Shown: one piece after another, positions 39,694-45,600 of the stretch
Layout of the letters: the number at the start of each line of letters is the position of its first letter
Numbering within the stretch: position 1 is the first letter of the stretch
From: an uncultured Chloroflexia bacterium
GTDB taxonomy: Bacteria > Chloroflexota > Anaerolineae > CG2-30-64-16
Reading direction: 5' to 3'
Assembly: GCA_963810095.1 (NCBI GenBank)
Contig: CAWEMM010000011.1
Span: forward strand, 64,001 to 128,000
DNA length: 64,000 nt
The notes under the pieces: generated by a model
Seen by the model: the letters and a program-made list of their open reading frames with translations, nothing else
What the model was told of the DNA's origin: nothing
Databases searched by the model: none
Position numbers and translations under genes: made by a program

Positions 39694-42600
39694 ATGACAC
39701 AGACAGACACGTCGCAGAATGCGCGGACGGCGGGCGCGCCGGGTGTGCCGGGCGCCGCCCGCCCCGGGGCTGCCGAAAACAAGCGCAACATCGAGACTGC
39801 TTACGCCTTATCTCCCATGCAACAGGGCATGCTTTTCCACAGTCTCTATGCGCCGGAGAGTGGCGTCTACCACGAACAACTGACCTGCACGCTGGTGGGT
39901 GAACTCAACGTAACTGCGTTCGAGCGCGCCTGGCAGTCAGTGATTCAACGTCACCCGATCCTCAGGTCTGCATTTGCATGGCGCCGTCTCGAAAAGCCGA
40001 TCCAGGCTGTCTACAAGGAAGTAACGTTGGCGATCGACAGTCGTGATCTCAGAGGACTGTCGCCGGCCGAGCAGGATCAGGCGTTGGCCACCTATCTGGC
40101 GACGGACCGGGCCAGAGGGTTTGACCTGGCGCGGCCACCGCTGATGCGGCTCGCACTGCTGCGCGTTGGCGATGGAGCCGGCGGTCCCGAGCACCGCCTG
40201 GTCTGGAGCCACCATCATATCCTGATGGATGGCTGGTCGCTGCCGCTCCTGCTCAAGGAAGTATTCACCTTCTACGAGGCCTTTGCGAACAACCGGCCCG
40301 CGTCGCTCGGGCTGCCGCGGCCCTATAAGGACTACATCACGTGGCTGCAGGGGCAAGACCTGGCCGCGGCCGAAGTCTACTGGCGCAAGCAGTTGGCCGG
40401 CCGGCGTGCGGCCACGTCCATCCCGACCGTGCGGACACAGCCTCAGGGGACCGGGACGGGCGAACACGAGCTGCGCCTATCAGAAGAACTCACCGAGAGC
40501 TTGAACCGGCTGGCCCGCCAGAACGGCGTGACTCTCAGCACCCTGGTGCAGGGGGTGTGGGCCATCCTCCTTAGCCGCTACAGCGGCGACGACGACGTGG
40601 TATTTGGCGTTACGGTCTCGGGCCGGCCACCCACGCTGCCCGGCGCCGACACGATGGTCGGCGTCTTCATCAACACCCTGCCCGTCCGTGTTCAGGTCGA
40701 CGAGCGCATGGCTTTTGGGTCCTGGCTGCGGAGCCTCCAGGTGCAGCTGGCAGAACTGCGCCAGTTTGAATACACGCCGTTAGTCCAGGTGCAAGGATGG
40801 ACCGAGGTCCCGCGCGAGGAGCCGCTGTTCGATAGTATCGTCGTGTTCGAGAACTACCCCGTCGACACCGCTCTGCGGGAGAAGCTGAGCAGCCTGGAAA
40901 TCCGGGACGTTCGCTCGTTCGAGCAGACCAACTACGGTCTCACCTTCGTTTCGGGACCGGGGCGAGAGTTGGTGCTCAAGATTTCGTACGACAGAGCCCG
41001 GTACGACGAAGCGGCCGTCTGGCGCATGCTGGGTCACCTTGCGCAGATACTCAGTGGCGCCGCGCGCGACCTGGGTTTGAACGCGCCGATCCAATCGCTG
41101 CCCCTGCTCACGCCCGAAGAGCAGGTCCAGCTCGCCGCCTGGAACGCCACCGCCGCACCCCTGCCCGACCGGCCCATCCACGCCTTCTTCGAGGACTGGG
41201 CCGCCCGCACCCCCGACGCGCCCGCCGCCGTCTTCGTCGCCGGCGCCCACCCGCCCGTCGCCTACACCTACGCCGAGCTCAATGCCCGCGCCAACCGCCT
41301 GGCCCACTACCTCATCGCCCACGGCGCCGGGCGCGCCAACGGCGTTGGCGGTGAGACCCTCGTCGGCATCTCCGTCACCCGCTCGCTCGACCAGGTCGTC
41401 GCCCTGCTCGCCACCCTCAAGGCCGGCGCGGCCTACCTGCCCCTCGATCCCAACTACCCGCCCGACCGCCGGCACTTCATGCTCGCCGACGCCGGCGTCA
41501 CCCTCGTCCTCACCCACGCCCACCTGCTCGACCCCGAGCCGCTCGCCAGCGAGCCGCTCGCCGCCGAGTCGCCCTCGGCCACCCACTTCTGCCTCGACCG
41601 CGACTGGGACCAACTGGCCGGCTATCCCGACACCACCCCCGCCCTCACCCTCTCCGGCGAGCACCTCGCCTATGTCATCTACACCTCCGGCTCCACCGGC
41701 CGCCCCAAAGGCGTCCTCGTCGCCCACCGCGGCCTCACCAACCTCGTGCGCGCCCAAACCGCCGCCTTCGGCATCACGCCCGCCGATCGCATCCTCCAGT
41801 TCGCCTCCTTCTCCTTCGACGCCGCCGTCTCCGAGACCTTCATGGCCCTCGCCGCCGGCGCCACCCTCTATCTCGCACCCCAGACCACCCTCGCCGCGCC
41901 CCCCGAGCTCACGCGCCTGCTGCAGGACTACGCCATTTCCGCCGTCACCCTGCCGCCGTCCCTGCTTGCCCTGCTCGACCCCGCCGGCCTCGACGACCTG
42001 CAGTGCCTCATCTCGGCCGGCGAGCGCCTGCCCGCCGCCGTCGCGGCCCGCTGGGCCCCCGGCCGCCGCCTCTTCAACGCTTACGGCCCCACCGAGGCCA
42101 CCATCGGCCCCACCCTCGGCCGCGTCGCCGACCTGCCCGCGGGCGCCGCCTCCGCTCCGGTGGGGCGCCCCATCGCCAACATCGCCATCCACCTCCGCGA
42201 CCGCTACGGCAACCCGGTTCCCGTGGGCGTCCCCGGCGAGCTCTGCGTCGCCGGCGCCGGCCTCGCCCGCGGCTACCTCGGCCGCCCCGACCTCACCGCC
42301 GAGCGCTTCGTGCCACTCGCCACGCATGCCCACGAATGCGACGAATTCGGACAGCCGCGCGCTACGCGGCTCTACCGCACCGGCGACCTGGCCCGCTACC
42401 TCCCCGACGGCCAGCTCGAGATCCTCGGCCGCATCGACCAGCAGGTCAAGCTGCGCGGCTTCCGCATCGAACTCGGCGAGATCGAAGCCGTCCTGCGTGA
42501 GCTGCCCGGCGTTGCCGATGCCGTCGCGCTCGTCCAGGCCGAGACCCCCGGCGACCCCGCCGCCCGCCTCGTCGCCTACCTCGTCGCCGGCGACAGCACG

Positions 42601-45600
42601 TCGGAAGCCGCCGGCGACTGGCGCGCCCACCTCAGAGCGCGCCTCCCCGAGTACATGCTCCCGGCCGCCTTCGTCCTACTCGACGCCTTCCCCCTCACCC
42701 CCAACGGCAAGGTCGACCGGGCCGCACTGCTCGCCCGCGAGCCGGAAGCCGGAGGACTTGGCTTCGCAGCAGGGCGTCGCGCTCGCGTCGCCCCGCGCAC
42801 CCCGGATGAGGAACTCGTTGCCGGCGTATTCGAACAGGTCTTGGGCGTCCAGAACGTCAGCATCGACGACAGTTTCTTTGACCTGGGCGGCCACTCGCTG
42901 CTGGCCACTCGCCTGGCCTCACGCATCCGGGAGGTGTTTGGCGTCGAGCTCGCGCTGCGTGACCTGTTTGATGCGCGGACGGTGGCTGCCATCGCCGAGA
43001 AAGTAGCCGCCGCGCGCCGTTCTGATTCGACCGAACCCGCGCCTCCCATCACACGCACACCCCGGCCCGGGGCACCCGATGCGCCCGAGGGTCTGCGGTT
43101 GCCCCTGTCGTACGCGCAGCAGCGCTTGTGGTTCCTGGATCAGCTGGAACAGGGCAGCATCTTTTACAATATCCCGACCGTGATCCGGCTGCGCGGCCCG
43201 CTGGACGTAGCGGCATTGAACGCTGCGCTCGACGACATCATTGCGCGGCACGAGGTGCTGCGGACGACTTTCGCGGCGAGTGGCGGCGTTCCCTGCCAGG
43301 TCATTGCGCCATCGCTCTCCATCCCCCTCCCGCTCACTGACCTGACCGAACTCGCCGCAACCGAACGGGAAAGCCGTGCGCGCGAACTGGCACGCGAAGA
43401 GATTCGAGGCCGTTTCGACCTGGCAGCCGGCCCGCTGCTCCGGGCGCGCCTGTTCAAATTGGGCGATGAGGAGCACATTGCCGTCCTGACCATCCACCAC
43501 ATTGTGGCCGACGGCTGGTCGATGGGTGTGCTCATTGCGGAGTTGGCGAACCTGTACGAAGGGCGCCTTGGGAAACCCGGCTTCTCCCCGGCCGTGCTCC
43601 CCGACCTCCCCATCCAATACGCGGATTACGCGGCTTGGCAGCGCGGCTGGCTGGAGACCGAAGACCGGGGCGAGGGCTCCTCACCCCTCCAGAGTCAACT
43701 CGAGTACTGGAAGCGTCAACTGGCGGGCGTGCCCGCGTTGCTCGACCTGCCGACCGACCGGCCGCGGCCTGCGATCCAGTCGAGCAACGGTGCGACGCAT
43801 ACCTTCCGCTTCTCTGCCGAGCTGTCGGATGGGTTGCTCACGCTGAGCCGGAAGGAGGGCGTGACGCTGTTCATGACCCTGCTCGCCGGCTACCAGGCGC
43901 TCCTCTCGCGCTACTCGGGGCAGACCGATATCGTCGTTGGGTCCGCGCTGGCTAATCGGCAACGCGCCGAGGTCGAGCCGCTGATCGGGTTCTTCGTGAA
44001 CACGCTTGTGTTCCGCACCCTATTCGAGCCGGGTCCGGCCGGCCCGCTGACGTTCAAGGACCTGTTAGCCCGGGTGCGCGCGACTGCGCTGTCAGCATAC
44101 TCACACCAGGACGTGCCCTTCGAGATGCTGGTGGATGCGGTGCAGCCCGAGCGGAATCTCAGCCACCCGCCCCTGTTTCAGGCCGCGTTCTCGCTCCAGA
44201 ACGTGCCGATGCCCGTTCGCGAACTGCCCGGCCTGCTCCTCGAACCCGTCAACCTGGACAAGGGCATCGCAGGCTATGACATGCTGCTACAGGTGACCGA
44301 AACTGCCGGGGGGCTGGCGTGCGCCTGGGAGTACAACACCGACCTGTTCGACGGCGCAACCATCGAGCGCATGGCTGTGCATCTGCAGAACCTGTTTGGC
44401 GCTGCCGTGGCAGACCCGACCCGGCCGGTCGCAACCCTGCCCTTGCTCACCGAGCGCGAGCGGGAGACCATGCTGGTGGAGTGGAACGCAACCGCCGTCC
44501 CATTCCCGGCCGATCGCACGATCCACAGCCTGTTCGAAGACCAGGCCCGGCGTATCCCCGACGCGCCGGCCGCCATCTTCGCGCTACCCGGCGCTCCGGC
44601 CCAAGCCTTGACGCTGAGCTACGCGGAACTCGATCAGCGCGCGAACCAACTTGCCCACCACCTGGTCGCGCTGGGCCTGCGGCCGAATACGCTCGCCGGC
44701 ATCTGCACCGAGCGTTCGCTCGATATGGTGGTGGGCATCCTCGGCATTCTCAAGGCCGGTGCCGCCTACCTGCCGCTCGACCCGAACTATCCGGCCGACC
44801 GCCTCGCGTTCATGCTCGCCGACGCGGGCACCGGGGGCGGCCTGGACATCGTCTTGACGCAGTCGCACCTCGTGGAACGCCTTCCATTACGCGGCGAGGC
44901 CGGCGCGATCACGCACTTGGTCCGCCTCGACGCCGACTGGGACGCGATCGGCACCCAACCGGACACATCCCCCCGGGTCCGTGTCACCGCGGACGACCTG
45001 GCCTACTGCATCTACACTTCGGGCTCGACGGGCCGGCCAAAGGGCACGCTTCTGCGTCATCGGGGCCTGTGCAACCTGGCCGACGTTCATCATCGCGAGT
45101 TCGACATGGGCGAGGGCAAGCGGGTGCTGCAGTTCTCGCCGTTCTCGTTCGACGCCTCTGTTTGGGAAACCGTCATGGCCCTCCGAAACGGCGCGGCCCT
45201 GGTGCTCACCGGCCAGGACGTCCTCGCGTCGGGTCCCGACCTGCTCCGGCTGCTGCAGGAACAGCGCGTTACGACTGTCACCTTGCCCCCGTCGTTGCTC
45301 GCGGTGCTCTCGCCTGCCGCCGTCCAAACCGGCGCGCTGCCCGACCTTCAGACTGTTATCGCGGCCGGCGAGCGCTGCACGAACGAAATCGTGCAGGCGT
45401 GGGCGCCGGGCAGGAACTTCTTCAACGCGTACGGGCCGACCGAAACGACGGTCTGCGCATCCATCCACCGGACCGACTGGACGGCCGACTGGCCCTTTGG
45501 TGGTCCGCCCATCGGCAGGCCCATCAGCAACTTTCAGCTCTATGTGGTCGACGAAAACCTCGAGCCGCAGCCGATCGGGGTGCCCGGCGAGTTGCTCATC

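Follow-up and report, generated by a model that had tools for sequence, protein, structure and literature searches.

Within a 64,000-nucleotide stretch of DNA from an uncultured Anaerolineae-type bacterium (hereafter the window), a large nonribosomal peptide synthetase (NRPS) cluster contains one adenylation (A) domain, that of module 5, whose codon usage breaks abruptly with that of its surroundings. Most probably, the A domain of module 5 was overwritten by an A domain from the terminal modules of the same cluster, and the codon bias is an older property that travelled along with it. The C-rich segment, referred to here as the cassette, occurs three times in the cluster with the same borders. 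The domains on either side of it in module 5 are orthologous to those of a gene in related genomes, a different A domain occupies the position in these relatives, and in two genomes of the same genus it is the terminal modules that are C-rich. In the event proposed, a complete A domain, from the linker between the condensation (C) and A domains to just past core motif A10, would have replaced the original A domain of module 5, presumably by homologous recombination or gene conversion at the conserved border motifs. The source would be the A domain of modules 13 and 14, and the swap probably changed the amino acid that is built in at module 5. The C-ending codon usage would have moved with the cassette, having already been a property of the terminal modules before the split from the two congeners.

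Composition and limits of the cassette

The original prediction, made from the DNA of the window, had singled out this domain (A5, the fifth A domain both in the window and in the cluster) for an abrupt change in codon usage, and the change is indeed extreme. Over the 544 codons of the cassette, the fraction ending in C (C3) is 0.752 and that ending in G (G3) is 0.186, with a GC content of 0.74. The remaining NRPS codons of the window (n = 13,328) have a C3 of 0.428 and a G3 of 0.391. A shift to the C-ending codon is seen for every amino acid that has such an option; the shares of GCC, CTC, CCC, and CGC are 0.86, 0.69, 0.77, and 0.84 in the cassette versus 0.38, 0.29, 0.39, and 0.47 in the other NRPS sequence. 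In windows of 50 codons, taken in the frame of the recipient gene (Table 1), C3 is 0.62–0.86 over positions 41119–42768, compared with 0.24–0.56 in windows lying wholly upstream and 0.28–0.62 in those wholly downstream. The GC skew in 300-nt windows drops to between −0.29 and −0.41 over 41100–42149 and stays at −0.19 to −0.26 up to ∼42750, and that of the flanks is within about ±0.1.

The anomaly is equally evident against the whole of the source genome (G000). Among 4,018 likely coding open reading frames (ORFs) of ≥250 aa, C3 has a mean of 0.427, a standard deviation (SD) of 0.043, and a maximum of 0.68, and the cassette lies above all of them. The top two of these ORFs (0.68 and 0.65) resemble non-coding frames; the highest values among native ORFs belong to two ABC sugar-binding proteins (0.60–0.66) and to repeat-rich surface proteins (0.61–0.62). 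When the genome was scanned in 20,366 windows of 1.5 kb, the skew had an SD of 0.048, and the values for the cassette (−0.294) and for its two copies (−0.319 and −0.314) ranked among the most extreme; the only comparable ones are positive windows on contig C2, which reach +0.316. The comparison of C3 among A domains, which had been suggested as a way of refuting the prediction, does not do so. Ten other A domains of the cluster with a long match have a C3 of 0.42–0.48. The cassette also tops 177 A-domain matches in 92 fetched loci, where the runner-up (0.69) belongs to a locus of Nonomuraea, and none of another 133 matches, from 80 metagenome loci, has a C3 above 0.52. Positions other than the third are affected as well. 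The GC content of first codon positions (GC1) is 0.77 in the cassette, 0.711 ± 0.028 in 10 other A domains of G000, and 0.67–0.68 in those of another Anaerolineae metagenome-assembled genome (MAG), L004; the share of glycine, alanine, arginine, and proline residues (GARP) is 0.413 in the cassette versus 0.369 ± 0.025. Selection on synonymous sites alone would not cause these two shifts.

Two local explanations for the bias were tried and rejected. The cassette is not written in an "optimal codon" dialect of the host, since the ribosomal-protein genes of the S10-spc region have a C3 of only 0.37–0.48. Dual coding on the antisense strand was considered for a 616-aa ORF at 40780–42630, the first codon position of which pairs with the third position of the sense strand. 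This ORF has no Pfam match, ends away from the cassette borders, and is one of many antisense ORFs in this GC-rich cluster.

The cassette comprises the whole predicted A domain together with the C-A linker and the Asub subdomain. Core motifs A3 to A10 are intact, and the translation contains YTSGSTGRPKG, NAYGPTE, YRTGD, GRIDQQVKLRGFRIELGEIE, and NGKVDR. A phmmer comparison with solved A domains gave 73 distinct chains at E ≤ 1e-40 (for example, 1amu_A at 3e-94); the top PDB score, 608 bits, is that of LgrA, whose chain contributes two A domains to it, and offers no clue to the substrate. The putative pocket residues, read by their position relative to the core motifs, are DASTIAAIGK. The D-A-x-T-I-A-A pocket type points to aromatic amino acids as the predicted substrate class. 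The same pocket is found in 4 of the 14 modules of the cluster (1, 5, 13, and 14), among which module 1 alone has native composition. The module 1 A domain, which serves as an internal control, has ordinary codon usage (C3 0.43), is ∼46% identical to the cassette, and pairs in the A-domain tree described below with its orthologue G014a_2665 (support 100).

Borders at the edges of the A domain, at 41100–42735, had been predicted. They do coincide with these edges, at the sharper positions 41098 and 42730, which limit both the identity to the two other copies (copies B and C; the cassette of module 5 is copy A) and the shift in composition. At the left junction, copy A departs from copies B and C at 9 of the 18 bases that precede 41098, and thereafter not again until 41126; the reading is ...IQS/LPLLTPEEQ in copy A and ...IGA/LPLLTPEEQ in copies B and C. 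At the right junction, all three copies read NGKVDRAAL, are alike up to 42730, and are unrelated from 42731 onward. The skew begins and ends at the cassette limits in all three copies. The same borders are seen in the two congeners: C3 shifts at LPLLT in contig C379 of genome G004, and the codon bias ends at the right border in contig C75 of genome G007. The suggestion that the domain edges provide natural splice points is borne out by these clean borders, one before LPLLT and the other three residues past A10. In an Acore subdomain swap, the native C-A linker and Asub are kept, which is not the case here. Within the cassette, the stretch most prone to insertions and deletions (indels) is a 15-nt tandem repeat encoding EPLAS/EPLAA (Table 1), where copies B and C have deletions and a contig of public run X2 lacks 18 nt at 41544.

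Downstream copies, proposed recipient module, and probable older home

A blastn search with the 1,636-nt segment matched contig C11 of the source genome at C11:105100, 133623, and 136990, with identities of 100, 95.7, and 97.2%, respectively; all other A domains matched at 64–78%, over parts only. When columns within six positions of a gap were masked, 1,500 ungapped columns were kept, over which the pairwise identity is 98.5% (A-C), 97.3% (A-B), and 97.6% (B-C). The flanks of copy A are 20–60% alike to those of copies B and C, mostly 40–55%. Copies B and C lie 28–32 kb downstream of copy A; PP-binding and Thioesterase domains come after copy C. Near-identical A domains thus stand beside diverged adjoining domains, the pattern of mcyB1/mcyC-type exchange that is discussed below.

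Upstream of the cassette, copies B and C also have in common ∼160 nt of C-domain sequence of ordinary composition (L001:5461–5620 versus 8828–8987). The two are 96.8% identical over 1,788 nt, cassette included, and patches with an identity of 0.9 or more occur further upstream. This additional identity indicates that modules 13 and 14 are linked by a separate duplication or conversion.

A donor with different codon bias had originally been proposed as the immediate source, which would mean that the A domain of module 5 was imported straight from another organism. The C3 of the cassette, higher than that of any ORF in the genome, is in keeping with such an import, as are the shifted GC1 and amino acid make-up and the low C3 of the ribosomal-protein genes, which shows that the bias is not the dialect of highly expressed host genes. 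The immediate source is instead to be sought in the same cluster, where copies 97.3% and 98.5% identical lie within 28–32 kb. Moreover, two congeners are C-rich at the downstream positions and have an ordinary A domain at module 5, and no outside relative above 54% was found in public databases, the value for L004 in the tree alignment being 60%. Direct import into module 5 is therefore very unlikely.

That module 5 received its A domain by replacement is indicated by its relatives. An orthologous gene with the domain order C-A-T-C-A-T (T, thiolation domain) was found in three of five relatives searched, namely G007 and G004 of the same genus and G014 of the same family. The amino acid identity between G000 and G007 is 0.64 for C1, 0.49 for A1, 0.64 for T1, 0.77 for C2, 0.74 for A2, and 0.80 for T2. 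Against all three relatives, A1 of G000 has an identity of 0.47–0.49 and the other five domains 0.54–0.82; C1 is 63–65% identical to its orthologue in each of them. G007 and G004 are 0.74–0.83 identical across all domains of the gene. An in-frame replacement of the whole A domain, as the original prediction had it, agrees with these values, in which flanks 64–80% identical to those of G007 enclose an A domain that is 47–49% identical to that of the three relatives.

Trees of the A and C domains, a comparison that had been recommended together with the prediction, are discordant for module 5. The A tree (83 rows) unites A1 of G007, G004, and G014 with two further G000 domains (support 98) and places the cassette in a second major clade (96), adjoining the two A domains of L004. 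For each of 10 other A domains of G000, the partner in this tree is a counterpart from a relative. In the C tree, the C domain that precedes the cassette clusters with C1 of the three orthologous genes with a support of 100. Both trees are from quick IQ-TREE searches with SH-aLRT support only. Matches with fewer than 470 query residues or with stops were left out of the A tree, among them copies B and C and a broken A domain at C11:130342, and three L003 rows were dropped as duplicates. The pockets at the orthologous module 5 position read DAEHMGLITK, DAEHTGLITK, and DAENVGAVAK, versus DASTIAAIGK in the cassette, and from these differing residues a change in the amino acid built in is predicted.

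The cassette type belongs to the terminal bimodule, that is, to modules 13 and 14. When five genomes of the same genus were searched with the cassette DNA, cassette-specific matches were obtained only at G007:C75 and G004:C379, and the other matches reflected generic A-domain similarity (65–69% over long stretches). G007:C75 starts inside a cassette-type A domain and is collinear with G000 for 2.4 kb into the flank formed by the T and thioesterase (TE) domains. The two are 73% identical over 2,916 nt and 78% in the cassette part. The A part of this contig (162 codons) has a C3 of 0.68 and a G3 of 0.25, and its T-TE part (366 codons) 0.45 and 0.38, with the transition at NGKVDR. Over 1,484 nt, G004:C379 matches the C domain that precedes copy B in collinear order (70% nucleotide identity). 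Its sequence from LPLLT onward, a small sample of only 29 codons, has a C3 of 0.72, compared with 0.46 in the 351 codons upstream. The contigs G007:C138 (L110), G007:C75 (L192), and G004:C379 (L204) end at or inside cassette positions, which suggests that these genomes, too, have more than one copy, breaking the short-read assemblies.

In L004, the domain order is C-A-T-C-A-T-TE. Its two A domains stand closest to the cassette in the tree, with 60% identity, the same pocket residues, and an ordinary C3 of 0.46. Between L004 and the bimodule of copies B and C, the flanks are 53–64% identical at the amino acid level and the A domains 55–60%. The first C domain of L004 has as its sisters (support 100) the C domain preceding copy B in G000 and the one with which G007:C138 ends. 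The A domain turned C-rich once the L004 lineage had branched off but before G000, G007, and G004 parted; the copying into module 5 appears to have taken place only in G000, and recently. The opposite order, in which the cassette was in module 5 first and was then copied to the terminal modules, would fit with copy A being the sole intact copy in the assembly. Since module 5 of G007 and G004 has an A domain of the DAEH type while the cassette type occupies their terminal modules, and since the nearest relatives sit in the terminal bimodule of L004, this order of events is extremely unlikely.

Table 1. Positions of the cassette, its junctions and copies, and other features of the NRPS cluster (window positions unless a contig is named)
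Feature	Position	Strand	Remarks
C-rich A-domain cassette, copy A	41098..42730	+	544 codons, LPLLTPEEQ to NGKVDRAAL
Left junction, ...IQS / LPLLTPEEQ	41095..41100	+	C-domain end, C-A linker start
Right junction, NGKVDRAAL / L...	42728..42733	+	three residues past core motif A10, before A-T linker
Indel-prone stretch in cassette	41536..41571	+	15-nt tandem repeat, EPLAS/EPLAA, loop between motifs A2 and A3
Copy B	G000:C11:133621-135241		beyond window, module 13; 97.3% identical to copy A
Copy C	G000:C11:136988-138605		beyond window, module 14; 98.5% identical to copy A
Recipient gene	ORF 39694-46473	+	2,259 aa, C-A-T-C-A-T by domain map and Pfam
N terminus and condensation domain C1 of recipient module	39694..41097	+	native composition, C3 0.39
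Native rest of gene: T1, C2, A2, T2	42731..46473	+	C3 0.41-0.48; A2 pocket DAWTIAAVCK
First A domain of cluster (module 1)	19714..21423	+	pocket DASTIAAIGK; internal control

Origin and persistence of the bias

If the terminal modules supplied the cassette, the bias itself has an earlier origin. Its likely source is a genome of higher GC content and biased C3, a homologous A domain of which would have replaced the earlier one long ago. No donor was identified in the searches made: the best outside match was 54% in the genome contig search (best 80 of 598 confirmed loci), 52% in the metagenome contig search (best 80 of 581 loci), and 54% in a word search of 5.8 billion proteins. Rarer matches may have been displaced in the two locus scans by FNAYGPTE, a generic motif. 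An exhaustive HMMER search gave at most 54% among the 150 matches listed, which are ranked by the summed score of giant multi-module proteins, and such a ranking says little about the nearest single domain. The best outside matches carry the titles of Anaerolineae or Anaerolineales MAGs. As regards the signs by which horizontal acquisition is recognized, the composition of the cassette is atypical, and no closer relative was found outside its kin.

To judge from the adjoining sequence, the bias has been kept for longer than expected. At four-fold sites of conserved residues in the flanks (n = 684), the F81 distance between G000 and G007 is 1.63, with a bootstrap lower bound of 1.24, and is near random. 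At those of T-TE (n = 131), the identity is 0.44 versus roughly 0.37 by chance, as calculated from base frequencies. In the cassette part, C is found at 63 of 75 four-fold sites in G000 and at 62 of 75 in G007 (84% and 83%, respectively). Even with an all-C ancestor, the expected fraction of C would be at most 0.63–0.68, which gives a p of 4e-5 to 0.0025 against neutral decay in a test of 75 sites under a simple substitution model. A later exchange between G000 and G007 was considered as a cause of the kept bias and is not supported, the cassette part being 72% identical at the amino acid level and four other orthologous A pairs 72–82%.

Horizontally acquired DNA of atypical composition drifts toward the composition of its host, a process called amelioration. 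The cassette resembles such DNA in having a codon-position composition unlike that of the host and in the direction of recent change: third-position singletons in copy A run from C to another base in 10 cases and the other way in 1, and copies A and C together have 12 changes away from C versus 1 toward it (p 0.003). Unlike the usual cases of amelioration, it is a single in-frame domain and not a gene or island, no donor or mobility genes were identified, and its bias has outlasted the saturation of the adjoining synonymous sites. Two readings are therefore kept. The bias may stem from an old import that has decayed unusually slowly, or it may have been maintained in the terminal module.

On the second reading, foreign DNA need not have been involved at all. 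The terminal A domain would have descended vertically from an L004-like ancestor, and its C-ending codons would have accumulated and persisted through selection, or through some local biased process, confined to this domain. The tree path to L004 is 0.73 for the A domain versus 0.85 for the C domain, and the two lineages have the same pocket residues at the same position. The cassette part is also as diverged as the four other orthologous A pairs, and its four-fold sites exceed the expected C content despite saturated flanks, all of which favors descent without import. On the other hand, no process is known that is limited to one domain with such sharp borders; the shifts in GC1 and amino acid composition would not be expected from synonymous selection; copy A is now losing C; and the persistence test is limited to 75 sites and a simple model. 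Vertical descent with a home-grown bias is thus possible, if rather unlikely.

Similarly, there is some chance, though a modest one, that one enzyme domain keeps a codon dialect of its own, through selection on synonymous sites or a function at the DNA or RNA level that is limited to the terminal-module A domain. A C content of ∼83% at four-fold sites is found in at least two species; the third, G004, contributes only the 29 codons mentioned above. If such a dialect exists, translation pace or folding, a G-poor mRNA stretch, and proneness to inter-module copying are candidates for its function, and the dialect would go along with every copy of the cassette.

The quality of the assembly differs along the cluster. 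The 45 kb of NRPS sequence upstream of C11:125475 have no frame breaks; from C11:130.3k on, frame changes affect the module 12 A domain, a C domain, and copies B and C. The last three modules (L001:2300–10700 = C11:130300–138700) contain at least 14 frame-changing indels. Several of the indels in copies B and C are in homopolymers of two or three bases, the large ones are in the 15-nt tandem repeat, and in each of these copies the indels sum to a multiple of three.

Many indels downstream, together with the state of the MAG (6.1 Mb in 16 contigs, with a completeness of 88.5% and a contamination of 4.8%), could be taken to mean that reads of a high-GC organism were stitched into the contig. Against this speak the three in-frame insertions that fall exactly at domain borders, in three flank contexts, and two other genomes in which orthologous flanks adjoin the same C-rich state. 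In addition, contigs of public run X1 cover 41038–41188 and 42441–42848 with ∼95% likeness and bridge both junctions. An assembly artefact is almost certainly not the cause. Four public runs were compared, through short contigs only and with at most 0.20 of the sampled words in any run, and the parts left uncovered in this comparison carry no meaning.

Several observations weigh against the proposed copying from the terminal modules into module 5, or against an older import behind it. The presumed source modules are disrupted: copy B has frameshifting indels of −2, −5, −6, +1, −1, −1, +1, and +1, copy C has indels of about −15+1, −2, and +1, and further frame changes lie outside the cassettes at ∼C11:130.7k, 131.8k, and 136.6k. 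These modules are therefore either decaying or poorly polished. Reads across the junctions had been named as a check on the swap, and the X1 contigs that bridge both junctions do not refute it. These contigs are short, with depths of 2.5 and 3.8, and come from one run, which is possibly related to the source sample; no public-run piece listed spans the whole cassette. G007 and G004 give just 162 and 29 cassette codons, as their contigs break inside it, and the direction from the terminal modules to module 5 comes from these relatives and not from a direct test. A1 of G014 is only 0.53–0.55 identical to A1 of G007 and G004, from which it follows that the A position of module 5 is variable in general. 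For the older event, no donor was found, with at most 54% identity in the database searches and 60% to L004 in the tree. At the protein level, L004 is at least as close to the cassette as to its flanks, so that composition alone marks the cassette as foreign. Finally, C has been kept beyond passive decay, yet the singletons of copy A run away from it.

Comparison with known exchanges and neighbouring features

In the microcystin synthetase genes mcyB1 and mcyC, replacement within the cluster has affected the A domain only (Fewer 2007, PMC2174460). In some strains, the two A domains are 93–97% identical at the nucleotide level and the neighbouring C domains 27–28%, the A and C trees disagree, and one partner is the module of the final condensation before cyclization (PMC2174460). 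The present case is alike in its copies (97–98.5%, versus 20–60% for the flanks), its discordant trees, and a terminal module as the putative source. It differs in that the cassette stops three residues past A10, whereas the mcy recombination area extends from A1-A10 into the middle of the T domain (PMC2174460). Other differences are that there are three copies, that the host is an uncultured Anaerolineae-type bacterium and not a cyanobacterium, and that the cassette bears a compositional mark; neither "GC content" nor "codon" occurs in the main text of PMC2174460.

Natural exchange units of NRPSs are mostly within Acore; their exchange includes intragenomic recombination and yields peptide variants, and the A10 border has been noted as an expectedly good recombination point (Baunach 2021, PMC8097286). 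As in these units, the part of the module that selects the amino acid was exchanged by recombination in the event proposed here. In contrast to Acore swaps, the cassette carries the C-A linker and Asub and ends just past A10, and the terms "GC content" and "codon usage" are absent from the main text of PMC8097286. In the pyoverdine NRPS of Pseudomonas, working laboratory substitutions were made with a unit of "linker + A domain" that is bounded right where the C domain ends, and a natural breakpoint hotspot lies between the C and A domains (Calcott 2020, PMC7486941). There, "GC content" appears once, in connection with gene synthesis, and no compositional mark is discussed (PMC7486941). The natural left junction before LPLLT resembles this design, a comparison that covers the left side only; the event here is a natural one, in contrast to the laboratory substitution there.

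The type of event is thus already known. What is new are the borders of a whole-A unit at base resolution in three contexts and the setting in an uncultured Anaerolineae bacterium, as well as a domain-limited bias toward C-ending codons that is older than speciation and resists decay. A search of the open-access literature for domain-limited codon bias in an NRPS found no report, one match being an unrelated Bacillus pangenome paper. Natural A-domain replacements reveal the cut points that evolution tolerates in reprogramming assembly lines of the peptide antibiotic type, and in this case the compositional mark on the cassette makes them legible to the single base. The presence of one whole-A unit in three module contexts of one cluster amounts to a natural test of its portability. 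A bias that is confined to one domain and outlasts the saturation of its neighbours is unusual, and if it is kept by selection, it would provide a clean case for why synonymous codons matter inside a megasynthase.

Contig C11 contains the 64-kb window, and the A domains of the NRPS cluster, 14 in number, extend on it from C11:83714 to C11:136988; the cluster ends in T-TE. In the 2,259-aa protein of the recipient gene, Pfam matches include two AMP-binding and two AMP-binding_C domains. After this gene (window 46470–53213), the next G000 pockets are DAWILGAVCK and DAEHMGLITK. At the same place in G007 and G004 (L105 and L106), they are DAQDFGMVDK and then DAAIIGGIGK or DAAIEGGIAK. The differing order of modules indicates that the cluster has been rearranged in more places than module 5.

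Elsewhere in the genome, an opposite bias is found on contig C2, in the near-identical oligopeptide-type ABC ATPase genes at C2:33353–34714 and C2:40529–41647 and in the next ATPase gene, C2:34686–35504. These genes have a G3 of 0.65–0.68 and a C3 of 0.21–0.23, and the adjoining permease genes are ordinary. Their richness in G3 accounts for the skew outliers near +0.30 in the genome scan and means that G000 has gene-sized patches of extreme C3 or G3. Beside the S10 operon, an EF-Tu-like ORF (C14:159441–160757) has a G3 of 0.49 and a C3 of 0.28, unlike the adjoining ribosomal-protein genes.

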